A DNA stretch of 64,000 nt, from assembly GCA_963665235.2 (NCBI GenBank), contig CAXXLX010000001.1, positions 384,001 through 448,000 on the forward strand, given 5' to 3'. The position numbers and the translations under genes are program-made. The notes beneath the pieces were generated by a model, which was not told the origin of the DNA, searched no databases, and saw only the letters and a program-made list of their open reading frames with translations. Below, piece after piece: positions 39,461-55,745 of this stretch. The DNA is from Candidatus Poribacteria bacterium (lineage in GTDB: Bacteria > Poribacteria > WGA-4E > WGA-3G). Each line of letters begins with the position of its first letter. Positions within the stretch are counted from its first letter, which is position 1.

Positions 39461-42445
39461 TTAGTTTCCGTTAAGGCGAGCCTGCTCCTCTGAATTCGGC
39501 GGGGGGCCGAGCCAGAGTTTTACGGCGGGCGTACTTGCGACACGCCGGTTGCCAACAGCTGCGTTAATAACAAAGGTATAAGGTCGAGTTTGCCTATTTC
39601 CCATGAACGGGTTCCGCCGTATTTCGTTGTTTCCGCTGGCGACGATATTCGGCACAAGCGTCAAGATTGCCTCCGTTTCATTCCTTCGGAGGACAGTAGT
39701 TTGTCGCTGGAGTCGAACGCCTAAGGGCAAGCCGACCGCTGTTAGATTCATGTTCTGCCGATTCCCACCCCGTCTGTCAACCTTCACGGTGATTTCAACC
39801 GGTCCGTCTGGAGTCACTACAATTTCGTCGGGAACTGCGGTAAGGATGATAGGTGTGGATTCCGTCACGCTAACAACGACGTTTTTGCGCTGAACAGTCC
39901 GGTCGTTGTTCTGAATACGGTAGACTTCAATCGGTGTTGCAGCGCGTTGGATTTGGCTCCCGGAGCCAGTCGTAACGGTGCCGACAACCTGTACGACGCT
40001 ATGTGTTAGGTCAGCGTCTGCTGCAGCGGTTAGGGTGATATACCCTTGGTCATTTCCGCCTTCAGAGAGGATAGCACTCTGGCTGGCAGTAATCCCTTTC
40101 GGTAGATTTTCGACAGAGAGCAAAATCGGTTCAGTAAAACCGACGCGGCGTTGGAGTGTAACATCCAATAGGATTGTTCCGCCCCGGCCGATATTTGGGT
40201 TATCGGGTGTCACCGAGATAGCGAAATCGGGTGCAGTAGGGCGCACGTCTAGGTGATAAACATAGCCTGCGCCACCTTTGCCGGCGACATCTTCTACTCG
40301 GACTGCATAGACACCGGGTTGTGCAAAGCTGTAATCGATAATAGCGTTGCGTCGTCCGCCTACGCCTGCGTTATTCCGTAGCACTGCGCCTTCAGCATTC
40401 AACAGGGTTAGGGTGGGGCTCAGCGGTGAGTTCAATTTTTCTGCGGATAGTTCAATAGAATAGCCGCCAATGTCCGCGAAAAATCCCCACGGCCCGTAAC
40501 CGTTCGTAATCTTGACAAGAATTTTGTTTTTCCCTTTAGAGATAGGCAGTTCAATGACATCGTCCGCGCGGCGTAGGGGACGGTGAACGTATTTACTGAA
40601 GATGAGTTTATCGTTCACCCATATCTTAATCGTATCGTCGGAGCCGAGGGATAAGAGATATTTTTGGTCCCGGTCAGACTCAATATAGGTGAGTGCGTAG
40701 CCAGTGACATCGTCTTCAGGTACATTTGAGAAGACGTTTTCGCCTCTGCGATTGGTCCGGTACCAACTGATTTTGCGTCCGGCTTTACCGTCGTATTCTT
40801 TCTCTAAATCGATTTCAACTTCAGGCGGATAGACGGTATCAAATCCTTTTTCATCTGTGTTATCAAAGGGGTGTATCACCCACCACGGGCCGAGGCGTGA
40901 GCCTTCAGCAATTGTGAATTGGTAATAATCGGCTTCTCCTGGTTCAGAGATGCGTCCACTTATGGCACCTGGCGTTGTGATGTCCTGTGCATTTTCGATA
41001 CGTTTTGCGATGAGTTGGCCGAGGCGTGTGACTTCATCTGCAACGAAAGCGATGAGACGGTCGCGTTGGGTGGGGGTAATATCAGCATTCTCCTTTTCGG
41101 ACATGCGTGTGATAGTATTTTCCCACTGTTCGGCGGAGAGCGCACGATTGTCTGGTGAGCGGAGCTCATGGCAGGCGGTGCATTTGGCTTGGAAAAGGAT
41201 TTCGGATTCGGCATTCCTTGCCAGTTCTCCGTTTTCTGCATCAGATTCCGTAGAGTCATCTGTTTTCGGATTGCTGCTGTGGGTTGCCGATGCGGACACC
41301 TCAACATCTTCGGTAAACTCATTGGCGATGAACGGAAAAATGCCGTACGGGGTCCGGATAAGTTTGAGCCCCGGCTGCTCACTGCTACTGAGTTCAACCT
41401 GCCAATCAGTTTCCGGGAGGTTTTCGCCGCCAATTTTCGCTTTAATCACCTCGCCAATTTTTCCACCAGTTGGAAAAAGGTAGGTGTTATATGGAACAAC
41501 GCCACTTGTCAAACGGTAAACGGAGTCTGGGTTGCCACGATAGAGCAGGTCTCGCACCCGAAGGTAATAGGTGCCATCCGCAGGTAAAGTGTAATCAATC
41601 AGCGGGTCAAGACTATAGAATCCGTTGTTTCGGATAAGTTCTGTGCCATGTTCGTCAAAAAGGTAGAGGGTTGGATTGAAAAACTGCTGACTGACATTGT
41701 TAAGCCGATAAGCCTTGACGTTGAAGACACACCTGTCCCCTTTTTTTCCTTCAAAGACGTAATAATCTTCATCACCGCCAGGGTTAACAACCCCGTTTAT
41801 GATAATAGGCAGCTGAATAGCTGTCGCGGATTCCGGGAGGTTATTGGATTCAGTTTCAAGGATATCCGCAGCGGGACTCACCTCGAAGGGCCATGCGGTT
41901 GATGTGCCTTTTTTTCCGACGATGCGAATTTCCCGCAGTCCAATGGGGGCGTCCGCTGCGATTGCGAATTCAGCGGTTAACCCGCCGCTCGCTCTTGCTG
42001 CGGATTTGAGGTAATGGACAATCTTGGTTTGGTCATCGGCACTGATTTCAGCCCCCTTCTCTGTTATCATGCGTGCGACTGTGACTTCCCACTGTGTAGC
42101 TGTCATTGAGCGGTTGCTTGGGGAGCGAAGTTCGTGACACTGTCCACAATTTGCTTCAAAAACAGGTTTATGGGTCTCGTCCACTTTTCCACCGCCAGCG
42201 TGGAGCGTACCAGCAACCCCAGGGGGCCCCTCTACAATTAAGGTATGTGCGCCCCCTAAATCTGAGCCCTGTATTCTCACGTCGACGTTCATTCCGACCT
42301 TCCCACCTGCGGGAAAGAGCGAATTCAGGCGTGGCGTGTCTTGTGCAAATAGGGAGACAGGCGCGCAGAGTAAAACTATAAACAGCAAACGTAGGAGGGG
42401 TTGCAAACCCCAATAGAGACCGCTATTTTTTTTATGGACATTCAT
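39461..42445 (-). CDS. Secreted PPC/Ig-domain protein with two c-type haem inserts and a PA14-like domain
   Basis: FPAGG starts, ESNNLP, DEDYYVF and DPLIDY motifs; CGQCH and CTACH; GSDD..IWVND. Confidence 0.8.
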   Translation of the reverse strand: MNVHKKNSGLYWGLQPLLRLLFIVLLCAPVSLFAQDTPRLNSLFPAGGKVGMNVDVRIQGSDLGGAHTLIVEGPPGVAGTLHAGGGKVDETHKPVFEANCGQCHELRSPSNRSMTATQWEVTVARMITEKGAEISADDQTKIVHYLKSAARASGGLTAEFAIAADAPIGLREIRIVGKKGTSTAWPFEVSPAADILETESNNLPESATAIQLPIIINGVVNPGGDEDYYVFEGKKGDRCVFNVKAYRLNNVSQQFFNPTLYLFDEHGTELIRNNGFYSLDPLIDYTLPADGTYYLRVRDLLYRGNPDSVYRLTSGVVPYNTYLFPTGGKIGEVIKAKIGGENLPETDWQVELSSSEQPGLKLIRTPYGIFPFIANEFTEDVEVSASATHSSNPKTDDSTESDAENGELARNAESEILFQAKCTACHELRSPDNRALSAEQWENTITRMSEKENADITPTQRDRLIAFVADEVTRLGQLIAKRIENAQDITTPGAISGRISEPGEADYYQFTIAEGSRLGPWWVIHPFDNTDEKGFDTVYPPEVEIDLEKEYDGKAGRKISWYRTNRRGENVFSNVPEDDVTGYALTYIESDRDQKYLLSLGSDDTIKIWVNDKLIFSKYVHRPLRRADDVIELPISKGKNKILVKITNGYGPWGFFADIGGYSIELSAEKLNSPLSPTLTLLNAEGAVLRNNAGVGGRRNAIIDYSFAQPGVYAVRVEDVAGKGGAGYVYHLDVRPTAPDFAISVTPDNPNIGRGGTILLDVTLQRRVGFTEPILLSVENLPKGITASQSAILSEGGNDQGYITLTAAADADLTHSVVQVVGTVTTGSGSQIQRAATPIEVYRIQNNDRTVQRKNVVVSVTESTPIILTAVPDEIVVTPDGPVEITVKVDRRGGNRQNMNLTAVGLPLGVRLQRQTTVLRRNETEAILTLVPNIVASGNNEIRRNPFMGNRQTRPYTFVINAAVGNRRVASTPAVKLWLGPPPNSEEQARLNGN

Positions 42446-42495
42446 GTGTATTCCCTCCAAAAGAGCTATCAGTATTTAGTTCCGACAAACACGGG

Positions 42496-43545
42496 TTAAA
42501 ATTCTTGGGTTAATCTACGGTTTCTGATATTCCAAATCCGGACTTTTCCATCTCGGCTGCCCGCAGCAACAAGGTTGCCTGTAGGGCTAATCTGCACAGC
42601 ATAGACCGCATCTGTCGGTTCATTAAACGTACGCCGCCGGTTACCTGTACGGAGATTCCATATAATTACGGAGGTGTCGGCACCGCCGGAGGCGATAATC
42701 TCTTGATTATCCCAAACCCCGCAGTCAACGCTATAAACGGGCCCCTGATGCGCATTGTATTGGCGAACGAGTGCGCCGCGGGTCTCATTTTCACCGTTTT
42801 GCGTGACACGCCAAGAACGGACAACGTTATCGGCGGACCCAGACACAATTAACCCATCCTCCGCTGCATAAGCGAGCGAATAAACCGAATCATCGTTCCC
42901 ATCAAAATTGACGAGGACGGTATAGGTTTCCGGGTGCCACACTTTTAAGGTTTTATCCTCACTCCCGGTGACAAAATAGTTGCCATCCGGATGGTACAAG
43001 GTGCAGAGCACCCTGCCAACGTGTTGTGTGAGCCATTTCGCCTGTTCGTCTATAGGTAGGGTTTCGTCGTGCTGCGATAAATCGATAACAGTACTGTATT
43101 CATCCATGCTTGCGGTGAGCAGTTTTGTGTTATCCGGGCTGATAGCGATAGATTCAACGGTATCGCCATGGATTTCGAGTGTTTTAATGAGGTCTGCCGA
43201 TGCGACATCCCAGATGCGTATTTCGCCACTTCGGGCAGCCAATCCGCCGCTTGCAAATAGGCTTTTGCCATCCTTTGAAAACTTAAGGCATCGCACCCGT
43301 CCAGCGTGCGGTTCATAAGTGTTAACTAGCTGCTGCGTCTCCAAATCCCAAAGTTCGACCCACTGATATTTTCCGACAGCTACTGTTTTGCCATCCGGAC
43401 TAAATTGCAGGGCCCAAACTGGAGATAAGGGGACCGCGTTTTCTTCAACGGGATGCTCCTCTGCCACCGATAGGGTGCCAGGCAGCGTGAAGAGTGCTAA
43501 CGTTATGAACACAGATAAGAGAAGATAGACGTAATTACTTTTCAT
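42496..43545 (-). CDS. Secreted WD40 repeat protein
   Basis: Signal peptide MKSNYVYLLL and about 7 WD repeats. Confidence 0.85.
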   Translation of the reverse strand: MKSNYVYLLLSVFITLALFTLPGTLSVAEEHPVEENAVPLSPVWALQFSPDGKTVAVGKYQWVELWDLETQQLVNTYEPHAGRVRCLKFSKDGKSLFASGGLAARSGEIRIWDVASADLIKTLEIHGDTVESIAISPDNTKLLTASMDEYSTVIDLSQHDETLPIDEQAKWLTQHVGRVLCTLYHPDGNYFVTGSEDKTLKVWHPETYTVLVNFDGNDDSVYSLAYAAEDGLIVSGSADNVVRSWRVTQNGENETRGALVRQYNAHQGPVYSVDCGVWDNQEIIASGGADTSVIIWNLRTGNRRRTFNEPTDAVYAVQISPTGNLVAAGSRDGKVRIWNIRNRRLTQEF

Positions 43546-43660
43546 CCCGCGTCCTCCGTGTCCTCCGCGATAATCCGCGATTTGTGGCTTACTCGCCCCC
43601 GCAAATGCGAACTCATAAAATTGTCCAAAGTTCAGTCTTTTTAGAGACATATTCGATGGC

Positions 43661-43924
43661 TTATTGTGTGCTATTTCCGTTGAGGTCAATATCCTCTAAG
43701 GTTGTAGCGGTGAGTATCTGATCGAAGAGTGTATCAAGCCGTGAGAATTCCTTAATTTCTCGGATTTCCTCTACAACAGTATCAGAGATTTCAGGGAATT
43801 GGTGCGTCAGCAACTTGATAACATACTCTTGTTTGGTGCGGAATTCACCTTGTTCAATGCCTTGTTCAATGCCTTGTGTGATGCCGCGTTGCATTACCTG
43901 TTCGTAAAAAGGAGATTCTTGCAT
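43661..43924 (-). CDS. Stand-alone Rpn C-terminal module (DUF4351-like, RpnS-like)
   Basis: GGAGG-5-ATG; MQESPFYEQ..GITQGIEQGIEQGE followed by a helical tail. Confidence 0.7.
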   Translation of the reverse strand: MQESPFYEQVMQRGITQGIEQGIEQGEFRTKQEYVIKLLTHQFPEISDTVVEEIREIKEFSRLDTLFDQILTATTLEDIDLNGNSTQ

Positions 43925-44036
43925 GATTGCCTCCAATTTCTCTTGCTAACGGTTTCCATTAACCAACAGCCACAAGCCATATAATAGTAGGCAGGTGTGA
44001 GGCGCGAACGCCTCACACTACAAAGCTATGCTTGAC

Positions 44037-45350
44037 TTAAGACAGAACCCCTCGGATGGGCCTACCACCGCGTGATAGGACAATTCGGACACCATCCGGT
44101 GACTCTATGCTCTGCTCATAATCGATGCCAAGGCTCTGATAGATAGTTGCCGACAGGTCTTCTGGACGCACTGGCGTTTCAGCTGGCTCCATCCCAAACG
44201 GGTCGGAGGCACCGACTACCTGTCCGCCTTGGACACCACCGCCTGCCATCATGATAGAGAAAACACGCGGATGATGGTCGCGTCCTGCGTTGCGGTTAAT
44301 GACCGGGGTTCTACCAAATTCACCCATCGCCAGCACCATAGTGCTTTCGAGGAGCCCACGCTCAGAGAGGTCACTGATTAAGGTAGCCATCGTCTGGTCA
44401 AAGGCGTTGAGTTTGCCTGGGAGCGATGAGAAGATGTTGTTATGGTTATCCCATCCGCCATTGCTGACGGTAACGAAGTTGACTCCCGCCTCGACAAGTC
44501 TTCGTGCAAGGAGACAGCTCTGTCCGAAGGTGTCGCGCCGGTATGCATCTCGGACCTTCCCCGGTTCTTTAGAGAGGTCAAATGCGTCGCGTGCATCGGG
44601 GGAGCTCATAAGATTGTAAGCGGCGGTATAGAAGCTATCCATTGCCTCTGCTGCAGGGTTTCCTGATTCATATTTCTTGAATGCAGCGTCAATGGCTTCG
44701 CGCAGCGTTCGGCGGTTTTCAACGCGTTCAAAGGTGACACCTCTTGGCGGTTGTAAATCGCGAACTTTGAAGTTTTTGCTTGCCGGGTTGCCGCCTGGTG
44801 AGAACGGGGCAAGAGATGCACCCAGGAATCCTCCACCGCCATAAGCTACCGGGCCTGGGACAGCGATGTAGGGGGGCAATGCGCTCCGCTGTTCTTTGAG
44901 TTTGGAAACGACAGCACCGTGTCCAGGGACAGCGAAGCCGGGAAGCGGTTGATACCCTGTCATCATGTAGTGTGTACCCCGCTCATGCGCGCCTTCTGGT
45001 GAGGTCATTGAGCGGATAATGCAGAGTTTATCTGCCTGTTGGGCAAGCTTCGGCATGTGCTGACTAATCTGGATGCCGGCTACGTTTGTCGGAATCGGTT
45101 TGAAAAGCCCGCGTATTTCTTCGGGTGCTTCGGGCTTAAGATCCCACATGTCAAGGTGGCTTGGGCCGCCGCCTAACCAGACAAGAATGACGGATTTAGC
45201 GGTGCCTTGTTTCGCCGTAGGTGAAGCAATTGCTTGTAACCGGAAGAAGTCGGTCAGGCCAAAACTAAAGAGGCCTAGCACCCCGGCTTTAAGCAGGTCT
45301 CTGCGATAGAATCCTTCACAGTCTGTGTGTGTGCAGTTTCTTTGGGACAT
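44037..45350 (-). CDS. DUF1501 domain protein (Tat-exported)
   Basis: RRDLLK signal, GGPSHLDMWDLKP, LLARRLVEAGV, WDNH and GEFGRTP..GRDH. Confidence 0.92.
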   Translation of the reverse strand: MSQRNCTHTDCEGFYRRDLLKAGVLGLFSFGLTDFFRLQAIASPTAKQGTAKSVILVWLGGGPSHLDMWDLKPEAPEEIRGLFKPIPTNVAGIQISQHMPKLAQQADKLCIIRSMTSPEGAHERGTHYMMTGYQPLPGFAVPGHGAVVSKLKEQRSALPPYIAVPGPVAYGGGGFLGASLAPFSPGGNPASKNFKVRDLQPPRGVTFERVENRRTLREAIDAAFKKYESGNPAAEAMDSFYTAAYNLMSSPDARDAFDLSKEPGKVRDAYRRDTFGQSCLLARRLVEAGVNFVTVSNGGWDNHNNIFSSLPGKLNAFDQTMATLISDLSERGLLESTMVLAMGEFGRTPVINRNAGRDHHPRVFSIMMAGGGVQGGQVVGASDPFGMEPAETPVRPEDLSATIYQSLGIDYEQSIESPDGVRIVLSRGGRPIRGVLS

Positions 45351-45436
45351 AGTTAGTCCTCCTCGTATTTTGTACGCGTGTCGGTAGAATTTACCGAGGG
45401 CGCGGTTGAACTTCCCATTAACGTTTGATATCTGGT

Positions 45437-46897
45437 CTACAATCTTTGTCGAAGTTTAAGCGTATTGAGCCATTTTTCAGCTTTCGGTATTGCCGTATCA
45501 AACGGCTCTTTCATCTCAAAGCATTCGGTTTGTCCAGCGTAGATGTGGTGCCAATCGACAATACAAGGTATTTTTCGTTTTTGTAGGTTTCGCATAAGAT
45601 AACCGCGTACCCTTGCCCGCGTATTGCGGGGTGCATTGCAAATGGCATAATTAATTTGTTGTTCAGTAATAATGCGTCTCATACATCCTTCATTCTGAAG
45701 GGCGTAGAAGATGCCTTTTTCCAGGTCGATGTTGTGATATTCTAGGTCAAGACTTTTAAGCCATGAATCGTTCCAATGAAGGTCTTCTTCGGCGATGAGT
45801 GCGTCGAGAAACCATTTCTTCGCCGCCCAATCAATCCGTGTTGTAAGCCGGGTCCAATCCGCTTCAAGGTCGTTGAGGACAGCTTCCCATTGTGTGAGAA
45901 TCCATTCGGTATCGTCAGTAGGTTCGGTTACCATGTCTTTGACGAAATTTACATATTTACGTTGAATATCAACGGCAGAAAGTGTTTTTCCGTTACGCAA
46001 GTCGACCTGCCATGTGAACGTTGCATCTCGTGAGATGTGGCGAATGGCGGCGATTGGGTCAGCGATGTCAAGTTCTGGCAGCGGCAGTCTTTCCCCGTGG
46101 GTTTCATAAAACCGCTCGATAGCGTCAAGTATGAGTGCGGTTGTGCCGACCTTGAGTGCGGTTGCATATTCAGACATATTGGAGTCTCCGACGAGCAGAT
46201 GGAGTCTGCGATATTTGGTATAATCGCTAAGGGGTTCATCGCGTGTATTAATAATGGCTCGGCTGAACTGTATCCATTCATAAATTTCTGTGACGATGTG
46301 GTCTGCGCGTTGTGAGATTTGGTATCCGTGAAAGTCGTCGACGCTGTATTGTCCATCTCCAAATTCGAGGATGTCGTCGTATCCGCCGACTCTGCCCGCG
46401 CCTGCGTAAATTTGGCGTGTGACAAAAAAGGGCAGCAGGGTTGGGATGACAACCCGATAAAACGGTATATCCCTACGGACTTGGAAGTTTTCGTGGCATC
46501 CGAAGGTGGCCCCCGTGAAATGGTCAATATTATTTTTGTAGAAGGCGATATGGTCTGCCAGCCCGGTTTCGTGTAAAATTGCGGTAATGACGCGCTCGAT
46601 AGCTTTATCGTAAGCGATAAGGTCAAAGATATTTGCACATTCAGGCGTAGCATATTCAAGGTGTCCCATGTCAATGTAGAGTCTACCGCCGTTGAAGAGG
46701 AATCCTCCGTTCCCGGGGGGTTCACCCCAGTCGCGATAGTGAAGGTCAGGGATACCGAGTTTGAGTGCTTTAAAGACGTGGTCTCGGACGCGTGCTGAGA
46801 TGCCTTCAGGGGAGACTCTTGCGCGTTTGGTCTGTATCGCCTGTCCCTGTATCATGCACCCAAATTCTGTTTCGATGCCCATGATTCTGTGTGCCAC
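45437..46897 (-). CDS. pafA: PafA-family Pup/UBact-protein ligase
   Basis: GIETEFG, NGGRLYIDMGHLEYATPEC, GCHENF and RRLHLLVGDSN motifs. Confidence 0.88.
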   Translation of the reverse strand: MAHRIMGIETEFGCMIQGQAIQTKRARVSPEGISARVRDHVFKALKLGIPDLHYRDWGEPPGNGGFLFNGGRLYIDMGHLEYATPECANIFDLIAYDKAIERVITAILHETGLADHIAFYKNNIDHFTGATFGCHENFQVRRDIPFYRVVIPTLLPFFVTRQIYAGAGRVGGYDDILEFGDGQYSVDDFHGYQISQRADHIVTEIYEWIQFSRAIINTRDEPLSDYTKYRRLHLLVGDSNMSEYATALKVGTTALILDAIERFYETHGERLPLPELDIADPIAAIRHISRDATFTWQVDLRNGKTLSAVDIQRKYVNFVKDMVTEPTDDTEWILTQWEAVLNDLEADWTRLTTRIDWAAKKWFLDALIAEEDLHWNDSWLKSLDLEYHNIDLEKGIFYALQNEGCMRRIITEQQINYAICNAPRNTRARVRGYLMRNLQKRKIPCIVDWHHIYAGQTECFEMKEPFDTAIPKAEKWLNTLKLRQRL

Positions 46898-46969
46898 GTT
46901 GCATTCCTCTCGCCGTTTAGTTATATACTGCTGTAGGTTCGATTGCAAACCAGCAGCCTGCCTACGTAC

Positions 46970-47737
46970 TTAAATTTTCCGGGCTGTCTGAATTTCTGCT
47001 TCGCTAAGTAGCCGAAATTTGATGTCCCCAGGTTGTGTAGCATCTAATACGGCTGCCTCAATCTCCCCGGTCTCTAGTTCCGCCTGAATGATGTCATCTA
47101 TCTGTTCGTCCGGTATTTCGGTATTCTCTTTTATATTTTCTAGGTTTTTGCTTAACCCTCTGCCGACCGCCCACGTTTTTAAGGCGAGCTGTAGGGCATC
47201 GGCAAGTTCCAGTTTCGTGGGCTCTGCTGTGTTATCGAGGTAGTTTTGCATTGCCATTTCAATTGGCTCGGTTCCGCCGACGACAGCGAATTGGTTCTGT
47301 GTTTTCACGTTGCCATCGTAGTTGATGTGGGTAAACTGTGTTGTTGTCCCGGTAGCTCCGATTTCAGCGAGCAACATTTTGATGATGTAAGCCTCGCCGA
47401 CAATTGCTTCAAAGGCTTGCTTGAAAGAGTGCGCCAAAACGAAATAGGTGAGCCGGTGTAAGTTTACATCTTCGGTTGCGCTCTGAAAAGCTTGGACACT
47501 TGCGGTATCTGTGACGAGCATTCGGAGTCGTTCGATATCCGCAGGGTGCCCGATTGCAGAGAGGGCAATTCTGTCATGAACTTCAAAGATTTTTCGCGCT
47601 CCCCCACCAACGGTTAAGAGTAGGCTCCCGTGTGCATAAGGTACACCAACGACTGGACTTCTGAGCTGCAGTTGGTCTTCTATATAGTCGCGCCGGTCCT
47701 GAATTGCTTCAATCCAGCGATAGGGCAAGTCTCTCAT
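46970..47737 (-). CDS. prcA: 20S proteasome alpha subunit (UBact-type)
   Basis: PYRW N-terminus, KIFEVHDRIA..GHPADIERLR and EAAVLD motifs; operon position. Confidence 0.85.
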   Translation of the reverse strand: MRDLPYRWIEAIQDRRDYIEDQLQLRSPVVGVPYAHGSLLLTVGGGARKIFEVHDRIALSAIGHPADIERLRMLVTDTASVQAFQSATEDVNLHRLTYFVLAHSFKQAFEAIVGEAYIIKMLLAEIGATGTTTQFTHINYDGNVKTQNQFAVVGGTEPIEMAMQNYLDNTAEPTKLELADALQLALKTWAVGRGLSKNLENIKENTEIPDEQIDDIIQAELETGEIEAAVLDATQPGDIKFRLLSEAEIQTARKI

Positions 47738-47755
47738 AATTTTATCCGTTTTGCG

Positions 47756-48664
47756 TTATTCTGTTCGGTGCTCAACTTGTGCTTCTGCGTAGCATTCGGT
47801 TAGGTATGGGTCAGTGAGTGTTAGCACACCGTCCCGGGTGACAGTTTTGACAGTGGGGAAAATTTCGGTTTTTGCGTTGTAGCCGCTTGTGGCTGCGTCA
47901 TATTCACTCGCGATGTCAAAAAGTCTTAACATAGTGATAGTTGCTTGACGTTCATCCATCTTTTCCAATCGGGTTTCGCCCCATCGATTGAGATATTGTA
48001 GTACGCCCCGTATCCAGATGGAGCCGGAGCCGGTTGTTGCAAAGTCGACGTTCTCAAAGTGTGCGCCGAGTGCGTCATAGAAAAAGATTTTTCCGCCATT
48101 TTGTTCCGTTTCCGGTGCTTCAGGTGCATACAAGGCAAAAATCGGTATGACTGCGCCGATGCCTTGCATCGCCATAGGCAAGTTTTCACGTATAAGCCGG
48201 GACAATGTCCGCAATTTTCCCTCAACACTGAGTTCTTGAAGTTGGCTCCGCCGAAAATATTGGAACGAGTGTTTGAGCACTCGCGCCATCTCATAAGCGA
48301 TAGCAGGTGACCCGGAGATAGCGAGTACAGAGTGCGTATCTACCGGTATAACTTTCTCAGCCCTATCATGAATGACAGCGGTGCCCGCGGTTGCCCGGCG
48401 GTCCCCTGCGATGATTATGCCTTTTTGGTACCGCATGGCGATGACTGTTGTGGCTTCCGCGATTTCCAGCGTATCGGCATGTCTCGACATCCGCTGTGGG
48501 TGTTCCTTAAGAACGTGTCGTGGCGAGTTCATACCTGCGGTTTGGAATGGTGCACGCTCCGGATGTTCCATGAATTCAGACGCGTCGGGTGCAGGATTCG
48601 CTGCCGCTAGCAAGGCATCAGCCTGTTTTAAAAGGCTGAGAAAGTCTCCTTTATGATTCATCAT
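47756..48664 (-). CDS. prcB: 20S proteasome beta subunit with a ~71-aa propeptide
   Basis: A|TTVIA..AGDRRAT..EKV, TGSGS and DAATSG motifs. Confidence 0.9.
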   Translation of the reverse strand: MMNHKGDFLSLLKQADALLAAANPAPDASEFMEHPERAPFQTAGMNSPRHVLKEHPQRMSRHADTLEIAEATTVIAMRYQKGIIIAGDRRATAGTAVIHDRAEKVIPVDTHSVLAISGSPAIAYEMARVLKHSFQYFRRSQLQELSVEGKLRTLSRLIRENLPMAMQGIGAVIPIFALYAPEAPETEQNGGKIFFYDALGAHFENVDFATTGSGSIWIRGVLQYLNRWGETRLEKMDERQATITMLRLFDIASEYDAATSGYNAKTEIFPTVKTVTRDGVLTLTDPYLTECYAEAQVEHRTE

Positions 48665-48855
48665 TCCCCCGTTCGTTGCCGATATCTCCGGGATTGGTCT
48701 TTGTCAACCCGCCGCATCCGTTTGAGGAGTTCTTGGGTGTCCGGTCTATTGACATCTGGGCGTTTGGGTTCACTATCATCTCCACCATCGCCCGGTTCAA
48801 TCGGTTTTACGGGTCGCTGTTTACGTTCGGGAAAATAGACAATTTTAGGGTTCAT
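48661..48855 (-). CDS. ubact: Ubiquitin-like modifier UBact
   Basis: 64 aa, disordered, ending ELLKRMRRVDKDQSRRYRQRTGE; lies between dop and prcB; GGAGG ribosome-binding site; stop overlaps the prcB ATG. Confidence 0.92.
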   Translation of the reverse strand: MNPKIVYFPERKQRPVKPIEPGDGGDDSEPKRPDVNRPDTQELLKRMRRVDKDQSRRYRQRTGE

Positions 48856-48902
48856 CAGAAATTCCTCCATCTCTTTCGGTCTAGCACATGGCTTGTGCTG
48901 TT

Positions 48903-50420
48903 TTAATTTAAACCTAATTTCTCAACGAGGGTTTGAGGGTTAGGGGATTGGTCAAGTGCTTCATTATACTGACGTGCGATTTCTGGGTTTGCCAGTCCAT
49001 TCATATTAATAGTGACGGGACTGCCATTGACTGTGAAGGTAATGCTGTCCCATTGGACGGTTTTTATAGAGTCCTCAAATTTATTGAGGGCTTTTCCACG
49101 AAAATAGGCGCGCGTGTCCGAGGGCGGGTTGGACATAGCCTCATGAATCTGTTCGTCTGTTACAACGCGCTGCATCGGCAGCCCATAGTACAACCCTTCC
49201 TCTTGGTGAATGTTATGATATTCTAAATCGAGGCTCTGTAGCCAGGGGTCATCCCATTGAACGCCTTCCTCTTCAGCGAAGGTTTCAAGCAACCACTTTT
49301 TAGCGACCCAATCGAGTCGGTCGATAAGGGTCATGGGGTCGTTTTCGAGGGCATCGAGCGTCTGTTCCCAGTTTGCCAGTATCCAGTCGGTATCACTATT
49401 TTGATGTGCAACATATTTTTGTGCAAGTGCAAGGTACTCGCGTTGATGGTCAATTGCGCTGATAATTTTGCCATCTTTTTTCTGCAATATCCATCGATAG
49501 GTTTGGTCGTGTGAAATAGTTTTAATGGTATCGATAGGGTTAGCGATTGCAAGTCCTTCAGGGATACGTCGTTGTTCAATTAAATCGATGACGAGTGCGG
49601 TTGTGCCGACCTTGAGTGCGGTTGCGTATTCAGACATATTTGCGTCTCCGACGATACCGTGAAGTCTGCGATATGTTTTTGGGTCCGCGTGCGGTTCGTC
49701 TCGGGTGTTGACGATAGGTCGTTTGTGCATTGTATCCACACTCGCTTCGACGTGAAAGAAATCGGAGCGTTGTGCAAGTTGAAAATGTCCGGGTGTTGCA
49801 AGTCCCGCTTCGGTTTCAATGCCGATTTTGCCGGCTCCGGCAAAAATTTGCCGAGTGACGAAAAAGGGCAAAATGCTGGCTTTGAGATAATCGAAGGGCA
49901 CCTCCCGTGCCATGAGATAGTTGTCGTGGCATCCGTAGCTGTGTCCGTAAAAATCGGTGTTGTTTTTGTATAGGATAACGCGTTTTCCGAGCTGTTCACT
50001 GCGAGTTTCAGCACATTTCTGTAGGATACGTTCTCCGGCCTTGTCGTGTGCAACGAGTTCGAAGATATTTTGACACTCCGGTGTTGCGTATTCTGGGTGT
50101 GCATGGTCATTGTAGAGTCTTGCGCCGTTGATAAGGATTCGGTCACTTTTGATTTCAAGAAAGGAGCGGCCAGATTCTTGTTCGGCCCGTTCGCGGTCTC
50201 GCTTTTCCTCCTTAACTTCATCAGGGTGATTATTGAGTTGTTTTGCGCGGAAGCCGCGTTCATCTCGAAACGGGTCTTCCCCCCGGTAATCCCAAATCGG
50301 CAAAAAAGGCTCGCGCCGATAACTCTTAATCAGCTCAATGGATTCCCTGACGGGGTCAATTTGTTCGGCATTTTCAAGGGTAATGCCGTATTCGGTTTCA
50401 ATCCCAAAAAGTCTGTGCAT
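48903..50420 (-). CDS. dop: Dop-family depupylase/deamidase
   Basis: GIETEYG, NGARLYNDHAHPEYATPEC, NTRDEPHAD and RRLHGIVGDAN motifs. Confidence 0.9.
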   Translation of the reverse strand: MHRLFGIETEYGITLENAEQIDPVRESIELIKSYRREPFLPIWDYRGEDPFRDERGFRAKQLNNHPDEVKEEKRDRERAEQESGRSFLEIKSDRILINGARLYNDHAHPEYATPECQNIFELVAHDKAGERILQKCAETRSEQLGKRVILYKNNTDFYGHSYGCHDNYLMAREVPFDYLKASILPFFVTRQIFAGAGKIGIETEAGLATPGHFQLAQRSDFFHVEASVDTMHKRPIVNTRDEPHADPKTYRRLHGIVGDANMSEYATALKVGTTALVIDLIEQRRIPEGLAIANPIDTIKTISHDQTYRWILQKKDGKIISAIDHQREYLALAQKYVAHQNSDTDWILANWEQTLDALENDPMTLIDRLDWVAKKWLLETFAEEEGVQWDDPWLQSLDLEYHNIHQEEGLYYGLPMQRVVTDEQIHEAMSNPPSDTRAYFRGKALNKFEDSIKTVQWDSITFTVNGSPVTINMNGLANPEIARQYNEALDQSPNPQTLVEKLGLN

Positions 50421-50485
50421 ACTTCGCGCTTTCCCTTAGTAGTCAGCACTTTCCGTGTGATGGTGCTGCGATGAAGGGGAATAGT

Positions 50486-52204
50486 CTAATAAATCACGGA
50501 ACTCGCTGTGTTTCGCTCTTCCTGTTTCTCAGGTTGAATAGGTGTGACCTTGACAACATTCATCGGGTCATAATCGAGCAGTTTGAGCCAATCTTCGCTA
50601 GCGTCACTCGGTGGGAAAATGTCGTTTTCGCTATATTCTGCCTGGAACGCTGCGAGGAGGTCCGCGATAGAGATACCTATTTCGGTGTCGGGGTCAGCAA
50701 TTGCTCGTTTCATTGCGGATTCCTTTGCTCGCTGGACAATAGATTCAATAATTGCCCCGCTACAGAGATGGCCACGATAGAGAATGTCGCGTCTACCGCT
50801 CCGGAGGACAACTTCAAGGAAGCGGTTTTCTGCTGTTTCCTGAAACATCTCATCGACGACTCGCGTAATAAGTTGCTCAATTTTTTCTTCGGCAGTTATA
50901 TCGTCCGAATCTTTCTCAATGGGAAGGTCCGGGGTTAAGTAGATGCTGAAAATATCCTTGGCCGCTGTTTTATTCGGTCGGGTGACTTTGATTTTTCTAT
51001 CAATTCGCCCTGGGCGGAGGATTGCTGGGTCGATGAGGTCCGGTCTATTGGTTGCAAGAATAATAACAACATCTTGTAGCGGTTCAATGCCATCCATTTC
51101 GGCACAGAACATTGGGACGAGTGTGTTAGAGATGTTGTGTGCCCGCATAGCCCTGCGGGTGCCCAAAATGGACTCCGCTTCATCAATAAAGACGAAGGCG
51201 AGTTTACCCTCAGCCCGTTTTTCACGTGCTGTTTTAAAGATTTCGCGTACCTTCCGTTCAGATTCACCGAGCCACATGTTCAGAATTTCGGGGCCCTTAA
51301 TATGGAGGAAGGTTGCCTCAACGTCCGCGCCAGTTTCCGTTTTGAGACGTTCGGTTAGATTGTAAGCCGTCGCTTTCCCGATGAGTGTTTTTCCACAGCC
51401 CGGAGGTCCGTGGAGTAGAAATCCCTTCGGCACACTATACTGAAATCGTTTAAACAGTTCCGGGTGTAGAATTGGCTGTTCAATCGTATCCTTAATCCGC
51501 TGGATAGTCTCCTCAAGTCCACCAACTTTCGTCCATGGAATCTGTGGTACGGCCTCCAAGGCGTAATTGTTCTGTTCAGTTGAGGCTATCCGTTCAATAG
51601 CGACCTTTAAGCTTGCATCAAGCCGAACTTCGTCTCCCGTTTTGAGTTTAACATTGGCGAGGTCGGTTCCGCGTTCTATGATAACAGATTGGAGGCTCGG
51701 TTCCGAGCCGACGCGCAGTCTACCATCCGGTAGCACTTCAGCGATTTTCGCAATCGGGCCCGATTCGCCGTAACCAATTTGACCTACGATGACAAACGCC
51801 TCGTTCAGCAGGACACTGACCCCTTTTTTGAGAGGGTCGGTCTCCAGCTGTGGGTCGATGTTTGCATAGTATTCGGCACCGCCCATAGTGACACGCGCGG
51901 TGTCGTCTTCGGGTACTGTGAGCAGTGTCCCGATACGGTTCGCTGGCGCGGTGAGCTTTTCAATATGCTCCTCCATTTCAGCGTGGATGCGAACGGCTTC
52001 CTGTTGAATTGCTTGAACCCTTTGTTGGAATTCGCCTTCATCGCTGATGATAGAGCGGCGTAGTTCCATGAGCCACTGCCTGCGCCAATCTTCTACAGGT
52101 GTCTCTTCAATAATTTGATGTATCAGTTGTAAGGAATAGCCGGAGCTAGCTTCGTTTTCTTCAAGCTCTATGTCCTCTTTCCTACGTTCCTTCTTATCGT
52201 ACAT
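50486..52204 (-). CDS. arc: Proteasome AAA+ ATPase (ARC/Mpa)
   Basis: Coiled coil plus OB domains, GPPGCGKT, GPEILNMWLGESE and DPAILRPGR; ATG 52204 has a GAGGAG ribosome-binding site (alternative start TTG 52225). Confidence 0.92.
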   Translation of the reverse strand: MYDKKERRKEDIELEENEASSGYSLQLIHQIIEETPVEDWRRQWLMELRRSIISDEGEFQQRVQAIQQEAVRIHAEMEEHIEKLTAPANRIGTLLTVPEDDTARVTMGGAEYYANIDPQLETDPLKKGVSVLLNEAFVIVGQIGYGESGPIAKIAEVLPDGRLRVGSEPSLQSVIIERGTDLANVKLKTGDEVRLDASLKVAIERIASTEQNNYALEAVPQIPWTKVGGLEETIQRIKDTIEQPILHPELFKRFQYSVPKGFLLHGPPGCGKTLIGKATAYNLTERLKTETGADVEATFLHIKGPEILNMWLGESERKVREIFKTAREKRAEGKLAFVFIDEAESILGTRRAMRAHNISNTLVPMFCAEMDGIEPLQDVVIILATNRPDLIDPAILRPGRIDRKIKVTRPNKTAAKDIFSIYLTPDLPIEKDSDDITAEEKIEQLITRVVDEMFQETAENRFLEVVLRSGRRDILYRGHLCSGAIIESIVQRAKESAMKRAIADPDTEIGISIADLLAAFQAEYSENDIFPPSDASEDWLKLLDYDPMNVVKVTPIQPEKQEERNTASSVIY

Positions 52205-52328
52205 TGTGAACGTCTCCTCAGGCAAAAGGGGATGACTTTACGATAGAGTTTACCACATTTGCAACAATTTTGCGAATCTTTACGACGTACGTTTTGCAAA
52301 AAAACGTCTTAAATATGGCATTTGTTAC

Positions 52329-52478
52329 CATTTTAACATATTTTAAAAATAGATGCAAGCAAAAAAATGCATATTGCCAAAAATTAGCCGGACCTGCCGC
52401 CTTAAATACGCTAAACTCGGGTGACTGTAGCAATTTATATCAGTTTAACATATTTTAAAAATAGATGCAAGCAAAAAA
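52329..52478 (-). promoter_or_regulatory. Duplicated sigma70-like promoter upstream of the proteasome operon
   Basis: 35-bp direct repeat at 52332-52366 and 52444-52478. On the minus strand the copies read TTGCAT-17-TAAAAT and TTGCAT-17-TAAACT. Confidence 0.6.
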
Positions 52479-52616
52479 TGAGGGTCAAATCAAAAAAGCT
52501 TGTTTTTTTGTGTTAAATAAGGTATACTAATTGTGTAAGATAATTTTCTGATTGCCCACGCCCGGTATGCGTATCACACGAATTAATTTTGAATCCTACT
52601 ACTACAAAATAGACTT

Positions 52617-55600
52617 ATGAACACTCTTCACGATTTAAACGAAAAACAGAAAGAAGCCGTAACACATGAAACTGGTCCACTGCTCGTCATTGCGGGGCCC
52701 GGCACGGGGAAAACAAAGGTCATCACACAGCGCATTGCGTACCTCATTCGGCATCACGGTGTCAAGCCGGAACGAATCCTTGCGATTACTTTTACCAACA
52801 AGGCAGCGCAGGAGATGCAGGAACGGGTTAGCGCCGAACTCGGCGCGCCGCACGGTGGTAACGTTAAGGTCGGCACCTTCCATGCGTTTTGCGTCGGGGT
52901 TCTCCGGAATCACGCTGAAGAAATTGGGTTGAGCCCAAACTTTACTATTTTCGAGCAGGGAATTCAGGACGAAATCTTAATAGAGGCGACCCGCGAACTG
53001 AATCTCAACCGTTACGACTACCCCGCATGGCTGCTACGGAATATTATCGGGGACGCGAAGTGTAAACTCCACAATATACCGGATGCTTTGGAGATTTCTC
53101 CTGACATTATCGCCAAGATAGATGACCCGATGGCAAGTGAGAATATTGAAAAATCGCTGAAACTTTATCAGCATAAACTATCGGAATATAAGGCCTTGGA
53201 TTTTGGCGACCTGCTCGTAAAAACGGTCGAGCTGCTTGAACAGGTGCCGAAGGTGAAGGCGGAGTATCATAAAAATATTTCACATATCCTCGTTGACGAG
53301 TACCACGATGTGAATAGAGCACAGTACCGCCTGCTACAACTGTTGTGTGCGCCCCCAGAACGGAATCTTACGGTCGTCGCTGATGAAGACCAATCGATTT
53401 ACAGCTGGCGCGGCTCTAATCCACAGTATATTGAGGATTTTAAAGCCGATTTCACCCCGGAAACGGTTGAATTAGACGAGCACTACCGGTGTAGCGAGAA
53501 AATCTTGCGCGCTGCGGAGGAGGTTATCAGCAATAATCCAGAGCGACAGAAACAGCACACGCTTAAAACCCATAAAGATGCAGGACGCGACATCTTTCAT
53601 TACACCTTTGAAACACCCGTAGAGGAAGCCCAGCGTCTTATAGATATTATCCAAAAATTAGTAAAGGAACGCGGGAACTCTTATCGTGATATTGCGATTT
53701 TTTACCGGAAACACAATATTGCAGACGTGTTAGCGGAAAGGTTGCTAAAAAGAGGCATTAAATTCCAGCGGATTCACCCGACCAATTCCTTCGATGAGGA
53801 AAACAGCAGAGGCATCCTCTCTTATCTCCATTTTATCCAGTGGCAACTCCCCCGAGACCTTGAACACGTTATCAATTACCCCGAAAAACGGATTGACGAC
53901 CTGACCTGGGTTCGGCTCAAATGGTTGGCACAACGCAAAGGACTAGAATTAGTAGACCTTTTGAAAGATATTGAGGCGTACCCGCAAGACGTTGGGCCTT
54001 TAACTCAGCGGAATGTTCGTGAATTTTGGCAGCAGTTTGAAAAATTATCGGCTGAAATTAAGGGAGAAGAGATTATTAAAATCATCCCAAAACTCTTCGA
54101 TTATTTGGAATTGTCGCGTTCCCCTTACCGTGCTAAAGAGGTGGAAGAAATTGAAAAACAACCGGAGATGCCGAATCTGGGAGTCACGCAGGATATCCTC
54201 TACAGTGCAATTGACTTAAATCAACAGATTCAGATGACCGTGAATCCCGGCATTGACGAGTATTGTGCTGCACAGATTATCCAGCAAACGTTTAAGACGT
54301 ATCTCGGCAAAAATGTGCCAATCCACTTTTTGGAGTCAGAGTCGGGTGGCAAACCGATGCGGGATGCAGACGGTGTGCATCTGCTGATAGGTGATTTCAA
54401 CGAACTTGGTGAGAAGGGTGAAAGGGCGCGGACAATTCTTATCGGCACGGCGGTTACCGAAGATACAGAGATAACCCAGTTTGGCGCGGAGGGGGTGCGA
54501 AGCATCGCTGTGCTTAAACTGTGTCAACGTCTGGTGAGCCGTTTTGAGAGCCCGAATATGGCAGACATGGTCATCTATGACTTGGAAACGACCGGTGTCA
54601 AACCGAAAACTGCAAATATCGTTGAGATTGCTGCGCGCCGGCTCAGTGCTATCGGCGATGAAGTTGAACGTTATTACCAACTTGTGAAACCGCCAGGCGG
54701 ACATATACCTAAGGAGAGCACACGCATACACGGCATAGACGAAGAGACTGTCAAAAATGCTCCGAGCATCGAGATGGCCCTCCCAGAATTTTGTGGATTT
54801 ATCCAGGACCGCATCCTGATTGGGCACAATGTAGCGCGATTTGATAATCCTATCCTTGAGCGCGACCTACAGCACTATCTGAAGCGCGGTTTGCCAAATC
54901 CACATTACGATACGCTTGTCACGGCACGGCGGCTTTTTCCACGTCAACGGTGTAATCTGGGGGCACTCGCTGAAAAGTTTGGCATTGAACACGGCCGCTT
55001 ACATGGTGCCTTGGAGGACGTTGAGGTCAACCGGAAAATCTTTAAAGAGCTCATCAAAATTGATTTACAAAAACGTGAGGTGAAATCTCTGACAGAATTT
55101 CTGCCGCTTGTCGGTGCGGGTATTCTTGCGAAAATGGATGCGCTACCTGAGGGAAAAAACTTAAGGGAAGTCAGGGCATTTTTAAATGCTGCGAAACGGT
55201 TTGTTCGAACGCATCAGCCGGCTTTACCGGACAATACACTAACTGGACTGAACGAGCAGGTTGAAACGTTGATTGAGCAGTTAGCGCAACTCGATATTCT
55301 TCCCTCTCCGGAGGATACCGAATGGCTGGAACGTAGGTCGAAATTCCTGAACACTCTCGTCCAATTTGAAAAAATCGGGGATGGGCATCAGTTGACTAAC
55401 TTCCTGGATTATCAGAAATTGCTCACCAATTTTGACGAAATTGACGATAAGAGCGAACAACTGACACTGATGACGTTGCATGCCGCAAAAGGCACAGAAT
55501 TTCCGATTGTGATTATCCTCGGCATGGAGGAGGGGAGTTTTCCGATGTGGCAGCAGGATATGACACAAGAGTATATTGAGGAGGAACGGCGACTTTTCTA

Positions 55601-55745
55601 TGTGGGCATGACACGCGCGCAGGAGCAGCTTTATCTCTCTTCCACTGTCTACCGGACCGGGGATTATGAGCGTTCTACCTCTATGTTCGTCCGTGAGGTG
55701 CCATCTAACTACGTCGTCAAATGGAGTCCGCGGCGTGGTCTGTAG
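52617..55745 (+). CDS. UvrD/PcrA-family helicase with an inserted RecJ-like scaffold and DEDDh 3'-5' exonuclease
   Basis: Helicase motifs AGPGTGKT, DEYHD, DQSIYSWRG, TLHAAKGTEF and EERRLFYVGMTRA; internal YDLETTG..GHNVARFD..HGALED. Confidence 0.88.
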   Translation: MNTLHDLNEKQKEAVTHETGPLLVIAGPGTGKTKVITQRIAYLIRHHGVKPERILAITFTNKAAQEMQERVSAELGAPHGGNVKVGTFHAFCVGVLRNHAEEIGLSPNFTIFEQGIQDEILIEATRELNLNRYDYPAWLLRNIIGDAKCKLHNIPDALEISPDIIAKIDDPMASENIEKSLKLYQHKLSEYKALDFGDLLVKTVELLEQVPKVKAEYHKNISHILVDEYHDVNRAQYRLLQLLCAPPERNLTVVADEDQSIYSWRGSNPQYIEDFKADFTPETVELDEHYRCSEKILRAAEEVISNNPERQKQHTLKTHKDAGRDIFHYTFETPVEEAQRLIDIIQKLVKERGNSYRDIAIFYRKHNIADVLAERLLKRGIKFQRIHPTNSFDEENSRGILSYLHFIQWQLPRDLEHVINYPEKRIDDLTWVRLKWLAQRKGLELVDLLKDIEAYPQDVGPLTQRNVREFWQQFEKLSAEIKGEEIIKIIPKLFDYLELSRSPYRAKEVEEIEKQPEMPNLGVTQDILYSAIDLNQQIQMTVNPGIDEYCAAQIIQQTFKTYLGKNVPIHFLESESGGKPMRDADGVHLLIGDFNELGEKGERARTILIGTAVTEDTEITQFGAEGVRSIAVLKLCQRLVSRFESPNMADMVIYDLETTGVKPKTANIVEIAARRLSAIGDEVERYYQLVKPPGGHIPKESTRIHGIDEETVKNAPSIEMALPEFCGFIQDRILIGHNVARFDNPILERDLQHYLKRGLPNPHYDTLVTARRLFPRQRCNLGALAEKFGIEHGRLHGALEDVEVNRKIFKELIKIDLQKREVKSLTEFLPLVGAGILAKMDALPEGKNLREVRAFLNAAKRFVRTHQPALPDNTLTGLNEQVETLIEQLAQLDILPSPEDTEWLERRSKFLNTLVQFEKIGDGHQLTNFLDYQKLLTNFDEIDDKSEQLTLMTLHAAKGTEFPIVIILGMEEGSFPMWQQDMTQEYIEEERRLFYVGMTRAQEQLYLSSTVYRTGDYERSTSMFVREVPSNYVVKWSPRRGL

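Follow-up and report, generated by a model that had tools for sequence, protein, structure and literature searches.

The UBact operon and its relatives

The stretch of DNA analysed here, hereafter the window, comprises 64,000 nucleotides of a Candidatus Poribacteria genome (G000; contig CAXXLX010000001.1, positions 384,001 to 448,000) and carries on its minus strand an operon for UBact, a ubiquitin-like protein tag, together with genes for its presumed enzymes and proteasome. Scans for open reading frames and protein families place six frames, separated by short gaps, at 45437-52225 in the order arc-dop-ubact-prcB-prcA-pafA; all six are open, with no stops inside the family matches.

50486-52225, minus strand: arc, an arc/mpa-like proteasomal AAA+ ATPase (579 residues from TTG; alternative ATG at 52204)
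48903-50420, minus strand: dop-like deconjugase/deamidase homologue (505 residues; Pup_ligase, 559 bits)
48661-48855, minus strand: ubact modifier (64 residues; the frame can also be read from the ATG at 48870, giving 69 residues)
47756-48664, minus strand: prcB, 20S beta subunit (302 residues; PF00227, 71 bits)
46970-47737, minus strand: prcA, divergent 20S alpha subunit (255 residues; PF00227, 24.6 bits)
45437-46948, minus strand: pafA-like ('PafA2'-type) gene for the presumed UBact ligase (503 residues from TTG; 486 residues from the GTG at 46897)

The initial annotation had described this region as a complete UBact tagging and proteasome operon outside Actinobacteria, a description supported by the Pfam and NCBIfam searches, which find all six genes, and by the host, Candidatus Poribacteria. 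It had also stated that the family was already named, and UBact models do exist in Pfam (PF20513) and NCBIfam (NF033388). The span that it gave, 45437..52204, located the operon properly but needs extending at one end: the first in-frame ATG of arc is indeed at 52204, and the longest frame starts from the TTG at 52225. For the pafA-like gene, the gene callers put the start at GTG 46897, which yields the 486-residue product.

Relatives of the locus were collected by scanning one-genome-per-species public genomes with the pafA-like protein. At least 560 places encode a relative, indicating that the UBact ligase type is widespread, and 80 loci were kept. Among the matches listed, the closest loci all bear Poribacteria titles (54-84% identity to the pafA-like protein) and the more distant ones belong to Latescibacterota and Gemmatimonadaceae (51-53%). 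All six genes occur in the same order in 74 of the 80 loci, drawn from these three groups; five of the other six end at contig edges and one, L048, has pafA alone. In the latter, a 2.4-Mb Poribacteria contig, the pafA-like gene is solitary, the other five operon genes being absent within 8 kb on either side. As far as its sequence tells, the window operon is an ordinary, typical copy of the catalogued UBact family, with nothing about the operon itself that sets it apart.

The tag and its junction with prcB

The tag scores above the curated cut-offs of both UBact models (PF20513, 68.2 bits against a cut-off of 27.8; NF033388, ubiq_like_UBact, 75.2 bits against 35), and the Pup family models (PF05639 and TIGR03687) give no match to it at E values up to 0.01. 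Its terminus, announced by the initial annotation as RQRTGE, can be read directly from the sequence as ...RRYRQRTGE. Fifteen columns are invariant among 16 UBact sequences from three phyla, and these include Y-R-Q-R-T-G; of 75 related loci, 72 encode a protein ending in RTGE and the remaining three (L065, L067 and L068) one ending in RTGQ. By analogy with established Pup chemistry, a terminal Glu would need no deamidation, as had been proposed at the outset, and the counts of termini fit this; the dop-like enzyme might then serve as a deconjugase only. The 2017 paper on UBact reportedly gives a C-terminal R-[TS]-G-[EQ] motif. The window tag displays this motif and the conserved basic tail, and it stands in the UBact setting, with a Dop homologue before the tag, prcB after it, and an ARC and a PafA homologue in the cluster.

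Two ATG codons lie at the junction with prcB. The ubact TGA overlaps the first by four bases (ATGA) and the second by one base (TGATG), in agreement with the translational coupling of ubact to prcB noticed earlier. The distance between ubact stop and prcB start lies between -8 and +4 nucleotides in 65 of 75 related loci, and the tight spacing is therefore not a chance trait of one genome. Upstream, the start of ubact is likely to be the second ATG, at 48855, which gives the 64-residue form, since GGAGG lies 8 nucleotides before it and the relatives begin at the matching residue. A strong Shine-Dalgarno sequence is the only feature that the dop-ubact regions of the window and of five relatives share. 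A 6-bp hairpin at 48882-48900 was considered as a conserved element and discarded (z score of -2.46 against shuffled sequences in the window, -1.39 to +0.62 in five relatives). Scans of 45200-52700 for promoters (9 sites against 9.2 expected from shuffles) and terminators (12 sites against 9.1) gave no signal.

The ATPase and the 20S core

The ARC protein contains the AAA domain (112 bits) together with the Prot_ATP_ID_OB_N and Prot_ATP_ID_OB_C domains of Pfam, that is, the double-OB architecture of Mpa/ARC, and scores 444 bits against TIGR03689, below the cut-off of 504.75. I take its GPPGCGKT and FIDEAE sequences to be the Walker A and Walker B motifs, respectively, and WLG to be a pore-loop-like motif of the aromatic-hydrophobic-Gly kind. 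The 20S subunits are likewise recognizable at scores below the cut-offs, PrcB reaching 164 bits against TIGR03690 (cut-off 191.9) and PrcA 67.5 bits (E value 1e-18) against TIGR03691, 20S_bact_alpha (cut-off 139). In PrcB, residue 72 corresponds to Thr1, since the alignment with the mature Rhodococcus beta chain 1q5q_H (1q5q and 2h6j are presumably Rhodococcus erythropolis beta-subunit structures) begins there, which leaves a propeptide some 71 residues long. Read from the sequence, an Asp at +16 and a Lys at +32 show the spacing expected for Asp17 and Lys33. Of 77 UBact-type PrcB frames, 74 have two consecutive threonines at the processing site, preceded by Gly, Ala or Ser in roughly equal numbers.

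A second, canonical Pup operon on the same chromosome

Profile searches of the whole genome detected one UBact gene and four Pup_ligase genes. The additional ligase-family pair belongs to a second operon, arc-dop-pup-prcB-prcA-pafA (G000:C1:3068873-3075490), identical in gene order to the first and 2.6 Mb away from it on the same 4,364,704-base contig. The tag encoded there is Pup (PF05639, 66.6 bits; TIGR03687, 52.3 bits), ends in ...YIQRGGQ, and gives no BLASTP match with the window tag in either direction. The ATPase, Dop, Pup, PrcB and PrcA of this operon all exceed the NCBIfam equivalog cut-offs, and its PafA falls just short (518 bits against 551). Between the operons, counterparts are 39% (ARC), 41% (Dop), 34% (PrcB), 28% (PrcA) and 34% (PafA) identical by BLASTP. 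By these sequence comparisons, the Pup system is canonical and the UBact system has diverged deeply from it, which does not fit a recent duplication, and this sponge symbiont would appear to operate two distinct ubiquitin-like pathways of degradation. The existence of the Pup operon on the same chromosome changes what deserves testing at the window. In this genome, recA lies upstream of the Pup operon and a gene for pyruvate phosphate dikinase lies downstream of it (L006, 15651-16730 and 6189-8816, respectively, both on the minus strand).

The assembly is of the metagenome type, with an estimated contamination of 5.65%, and one could therefore suspect that the co-residence of the two operons results from faulty assembly or binning, or else that the UBact operon is a decaying relic. 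Several observations speak against this: the presence of both operons on a single contig, the recurrence of the same pair in dozens of single-contig genomes, the six intact frames, uninterrupted within the family matches, and the coverage of much of the operon by contigs from RNA libraries. I regard this explanation as already refuted.

That the two systems coexist as a rule is apparent from the related genomes. In a sample of 101 genomes of the order, G000 included, at least four Pup_ligase matches were found in 97 and two in the other four. Pup is present in 99 of them (missing in G093 and G016) and UBact also in 99 (missing in G067 and G008), so that 97 genomes have both tags, the four exceptions being fragmented assemblies of 50-530 contigs. 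In a sample of the phylum (121 genomes), 112 genomes have at least four Pup_ligase matches, two have three, four have two, and three, all of another class, have none; five genomes from within the class but outside the order gave four matches (four genomes) or three (one genome). Seven more Poribacteria Pup operons were retrieved. The four that come from the same taxonomic order, as well as L093, contain the complete set of six genes, arranged alike; in the stretches fetched for L091 and L092 pafA was not seen, nor was prcA in L092. With the window's genome included, the Pup terminus of Poribacteria is GGQ in four of eight cases and GGE in the other four.

The situation is different in the other UBact-bearing genomes sampled. 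Exactly two ligase-family genes, the UBact pair, are present in five of five complete Latescibacterota genomes, and four further genomes, two Gemmatimonadaceae among them, have the UBact enzyme pair only. This comparison covers nine genomes (G145 was set aside, its places being the same as those of the Poribacteria genome G020), with Nitrospirota, Verrucomicrobiota and other UBact phyla outside the sample, and I therefore make no claim that the pairing is unique to Poribacteria.

Assignment of the ligase and the deligase

Dop and PafA are homologous, and Hecht et al. 2020 (PMC7947786) give a table (Table 1) of positions separating the two; the same source reports that TIGRFAM profiles separate them imperfectly and that single-copy relatives exist in some Planctomycetes. 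The dop-like protein of the window scores 487 bits against the Dop profile TIGR03688, just below the cut-off of 492.3, and 388 bits against the PafA profile. Read against that table, it has a long insert at the position of the Dop loop, D-H-A-H after the catalytic Asp, and a Ser followed four residues on by Ile/Leu, where Dop has Ser and Val.

The pafA-like protein matches Pup_ligase of Pfam at 457 bits and lies far below the cut-off of the PafA profile TIGR03686 (364 bits against 551.3). It aligns over its full length with Corynebacterium glutamicum PafA (4b0t) and only from residue 82 with Dop structures. At five diagnostic positions of the table (PMC7947786) it carries the PafA-type residue, namely Ala and Phe at table positions 3 and 4, Phe at 7, His at 25 and Asp at 46, the last of these preceding a conserved Trp. 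The sequences EPPGNGGF, DMGH and TEIY[EQ]WIQFSR are near-invariant among 17 homologues from at least three phyla; by sequence this family is a stable, distinct subfamily, and the records of some relatives of the ligase bear the NCBI name 'PafA2 family'. The protein would thus appear to work like PafA and yet to belong to a separate 'PafA2' lineage, as it keeps the PafA-type residues at the five positions and falls outside the canonical clade (see below).

The interaction of the pafA-like protein with residues 25-64 of UBact was modelled in three runs, giving ipSAE values of 0.75, 0.76 and 0.75, with 0.00 for the best of three controls. At least 76% of the contacts agreed between runs and the partner had a pLDDT (a per-residue confidence score) of at least 66. 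Of 157 solved complexes, 116 attain the mark used for such models, as do 2 of 215 mismatched pairs. In the model, UBact residues 50-64 contact enzyme residues 11-17, in the ATP motif, and 76-79, around the catalytic Asp, and the UBact helix rests on enzyme residues 363-405. The predicted arrangement is compatible with covalent attachment to lysine, and says no more than that.

Charge of the tags and of their binding surfaces

The two tags of the genome are oppositely charged: the net charge of the last 30 residues is +5 for UBact and -11 for Pup. The surfaces expected to bind them show the reverse pattern. Over the 60 residues that precede the ARC OB domain, the charge is -5 in the UBact-type ARC of the window (median -2, range -6 to +1, n = 72) and +3 in the Pup-type ARC of the same genome (+1 to +2 in the seven others, n = 8). 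In the enzymes, charge was summed over the modelled tag groove, a stretch of 56 residues in the window's protein that was followed elsewhere by alignment column. The UBact-type values are -8 here for Dop (median -7, n = 17) and -5 here for PafA (median -6, n = 17), and the Pup-type values +4 here for Dop (median +6, n = 8) and +2 here for PafA (median +3, n = 6). The two ranges do not overlap (-12 to -1 for 34 UBact-type enzymes, +1 to +9 for 14 Pup-type enzymes). Single interface columns shift in the same way in both enzymes; at position 370, for instance, Dop and PafA both have Glu in the UBact type and Arg in the Pup type, and positions 399 and 403 (all in the numbering of the pafA-like protein P0002) likewise distinguish the systems. 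This reversal on tags and binding surfaces alike leads to the proposal that charge keeps each tag with its own enzymes.

The opposite possibility is that the two systems are partly redundant and communicate, either ligase accepting either tag, or either ARC-20S machine accepting either conjugate, in which case UBact would be a back-up or a condition-specific isoform of Pup. Both enzyme pairs do belong to one family with a common catalytic core (112 columns are invariant across the four Pup_ligase paralogues of the genome), the gene order is the same in both operons, and both tags end in Gly-Glu or Gly-Gln. However, the tails and both kinds of binding surface are oppositely charged, with no overlap in groove charge across 48 enzymes, and counterparts are only 28-41% identical; furthermore, the pair is retained in 97 of the 101 genomes of the order, and plain redundancy would not be expected to last so long. 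Redundancy with cross-talk thus seems unlikely to me, and insulation of the two pathways by charge is the reading that I pursue below.

Phylogeny of the Pup_ligase family

In an IQ-TREE phylogeny of 48 sequences, Dop groups with PafA inside each system (support 95/97), which would suggest that Dop and PafA arose by an independent duplication in each. This interpretation was dropped. The alternative topology that brings both Dops together is not rejected by the approximately unbiased (AU) test (difference in log-likelihood of 14.5, p 0.119), and the two Dop types are united in a larger tree. For the latter, 1.84 billion proteins were searched with a profile, which returned 7789 matches at E values up to 0.001; 150 representatives were labelled by motif and not by name, 14 were discarded for a length outside 420-640 residues, and 136 were added to the 48 sequences. 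In the resulting FastTree phylogeny of 184 sequences, the canonical PafA of the genome falls in the clade of ligases that carry a one-residue insertion after the catalytic Asp (46 sequences, local support 96), both Dop types, including the dop-like protein of the window, form one supergroup (109 sequences, local support 97), and the UBact-type PafA clade lies outside both. The charged groove common to the enzymes of one system could explain why Dop and PafA attract each other within the smaller tree.

The two Dops would then be orthologous and the UBact-type ligase a third, separate lineage, a conclusion of modest strength given that it depends on motif-based labels and on the local support values of FastTree. 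Since both operons have their genes in an identical order, the two-enzyme layout is probably older than their split. A homologue search started from the Pup-type PafA returned only proteins of at least 74% identity, those with a name being from Poribacteria, and hence provided no outgroup.

Neighbouring genes

Directly downstream of pafA, at 39461-45350 on the minus strand, come three genes. Their products are a DUF1501 protein, a WD40 protein that has seven blades and a hydrophobic stretch at its N-terminus, and a 999-residue protein with cytochrome-c-like and PPC domains. Among the 80 loci, 26-27 have this trio after the operon, and all of these bear Poribacteria titles. About 6 kb downstream of the operon follows a tricorn-type protease of 1093 residues (36051-39332, minus strand; Tricorn_C1, PDZ_Tricorn and Peptidase_S41), which was considered as a member of the system and rejected, since no more than 5 of the 80 loci show it inside the 8-kb flank. 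On the other side, upstream of arc and divergent from it, is a UvrD-type helicase of 1042 residues (52617-55745, plus strand) with an RNase_T/DnaQ-like exonuclease domain (residues 652-809) inserted in the UvrD_C region.

Discussion

The gene content of the locus, its conservation, its co-residence with a Pup operon and the charge pattern were established directly, and from them I infer UBact conjugation, degradation of the conjugates and the absence of cross-talk. It is probable, in my view, that the locus is a functional six-gene UBact operon, that a complete Pup system exists beside it, and that the two pathways run in parallel, insulated from each other electrostatically.

In the Pup pathway, the ligase activates the side chain of the C-terminal Glu with ATP and forms an isopeptide bond with a lysine of the target; the tag is then recognized by the N-terminal region of ARC, the conjugate is unfolded into the 20S core, and Dop removes the tag. 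By analogy, the pafA-like enzyme would use ATP to activate the side-chain carboxylate of the C-terminal Glu of UBact and would then join it to target lysines, with no deamidation step. The acidic N-terminal region of the ARC hexamer would bind the basic helical tail of UBact and ARC would thread the conjugate into the dedicated PrcA/PrcB core, while the dop-like enzyme would remove and recycle the tag.

A more far-reaching proposal, which I put forward tentatively and with distinctly less assurance, is that Poribacteria maintain in one cytoplasm two complete and insulated pathways, one for an acidic Pup ending in Gln or Glu and the other for a basic UBact ending in Glu, each equipped with a ligase, a deligase, an unfoldase and a 20S core of its own; that partners are chosen largely by charge; and that the UBact ligase is a third lineage of Pup ligases, neither canonical PafA nor Dop. 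If true, such dual insulated pathways would give bacteria a counterpart of the multiple ubiquitin-like modifiers that eukaryotes possess.

A number of observations weigh against the main reading, that of a functional and insulated UBact pathway. All five partner proteins of the tag in the UBact operon (ARC, Dop, PrcB, PrcA and PafA) fall below the NCBIfam equivalog cut-offs for the Pup system. In the presumed ligase, the single inserted residue that follows the catalytic Asp in PafA is missing (D-M-G-H versus D-V-G-S-H), and the alpha-loop reads TEIYEWIQFSR instead of S-S-A-T-T, with Ile and Gln replacing the two threonines, which according to Hecht et al. (PMC7947786) are conserved in both PafA and Dop and matter for their function. 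The high score of the modelled complex may merely reflect likeness to, or memory of, the solved PafA-Pup complex 4bjr. Charge complementarity is a correlation, and the charge data are compatible with cross-reaction.

Another deviation concerns the docking of the ATPase. The docking tail of Mpa is GQYL, and the Pup-type ARCs of Poribacteria have a G-x-[YF]-L tail in eight of eight cases. In contrast, the tails of UBact-type ARCs are V/I-[IV] in 74 of 74 related loci, and the penultimate residue is never aromatic. The window ARC ends in ...SSVIY, without a GQYL-type tail; relative to the same 74 loci, it has one extra C-terminal Tyr (50486-50491). Docking of UBact-type ARCs to the core may therefore follow a rule other than that of Mpa. 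One could go further and propose that UBact is not a degradation signal at all, the ARC being only an unfoldase or a regulator and the 20S core working independently of the tag, as neither a GQYL-like nor an HbYX-like tail is found in any of the 74 ARCs. Yet in 74 of 80 loci prcB and prcA are enclosed within the operon by ubact and pafA, and in 65 of 75 loci the start of prcB is coupled to the stop of ubact, which would be difficult to account for if tag and protease were not both produced and used together. The V-[IV] tail is itself conserved, which suggests a different docking rule and not the lack of one. A role of UBact outside degradation consequently appears very improbable, and degradation by the dedicated core remains the preferred reading.

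Two further reservations concern expression and chemistry. All or part of the stretch is contained in eleven public sequencing runs from five studies, three of which, from a single study, are metatranscriptomes. Contigs from these three runs, at 95-99% likeness, reach 26, 20 and 17 of the stretch's 30 bins, but such contigs tell neither strand nor level nor even transcription, given the possible carry-over of DNA, and the uncovered stretches are uninformative. One RNA-library contig of 285 bases, with a single difference, spans the ubact-prcB junction (48564-48846), and another (48706-49107) crosses from dop to ubact. As for chemistry, the literature searched yielded neither biochemical nor proteomic evidence that UBact is conjugated. 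The initial annotation had called this chemistry largely uncharacterised, and in the passages retrieved UBact is indeed only cited, being named in passing in PMC11354881 and PMC12751074 and having no occurrence in Hecht et al. (PMC7947786). No report of Pup and UBact in one genome was found in the literature on pupylation and on Poribacteria proteasomes, a search that did not cover the founding 2017 UBact paper.

Taken alone, the operon adds a further copy to a catalogued system; its value comes from the pairing with Pup, both pathways being present in this genome and in nearly every sampled genome of the class. The charge reversal on the tags and on the surfaces expected to bind them provides a simple, falsifiable rule for partner choice, and the pairing offers matched positive and negative controls for a first reconstitution of UBact conjugation. 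Since the tryptic remnants of the two tags on lysine can be told apart (TGE adds a calculated 287.112 Da and GGE 243.086 Da), proteomics could reveal whether the pathways divide the proteome between them. The genome thus lends itself naturally to tests of UBact chemistry and of how specific the ubiquitin-like tags of bacteria are.

Comparison with known systems

The nearest known systems are the UBact-proteasome loci of Gram-negative phyla, said to have been described by Lehmann, Udasin, Livneh and Ciechanover in 2017 (BBRC 483:946) in a list of phyla that reportedly includes Poribacteria. The window operon has the same tag family, gene order and R-T-G-E terminus, and differs by the company it keeps, namely a canonical Pup operon on the same chromosome.

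With the Pup-proteasome system of Actinobacteria, which in Mycobacterium tuberculosis has the order mpa-dop-pup-prcB-prcA-pafA, the window operon shares the six roles and their order, the carboxylate-amine ligase fold family of ligase and deligase, a beta subunit of the Thr1 protease type and a tag terminus of the Gly-Glu/Gly-Gln kind. In contrast, its tag is basic and not acidic, its ligase lacks the insertion after the catalytic Asp and the Thr-Thr of the alpha-loop, and its ARC has a V-I tail instead of GQYL. The true counterpart of the actinobacterial system is the other operon of the genome.

In C. glutamicum, Pup is acidic and ends in Glu, so that the Dop homologue is needed only for tag removal, and the species is not known to have a proteasome. 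The window operon follows the same logic of a Glu terminus that would bypass deamidation, but it encodes a dedicated 20S core. Finally, R. erythropolis possesses duplicated prcBA operons, by which the core subunits are doubled within a single Pup system. Both organisms therefore have two sets of 20S genes; in the Poribacteria genome, however, tag, ligase, deligase, unfoldase and core are all present twice, at 28-41% identity.

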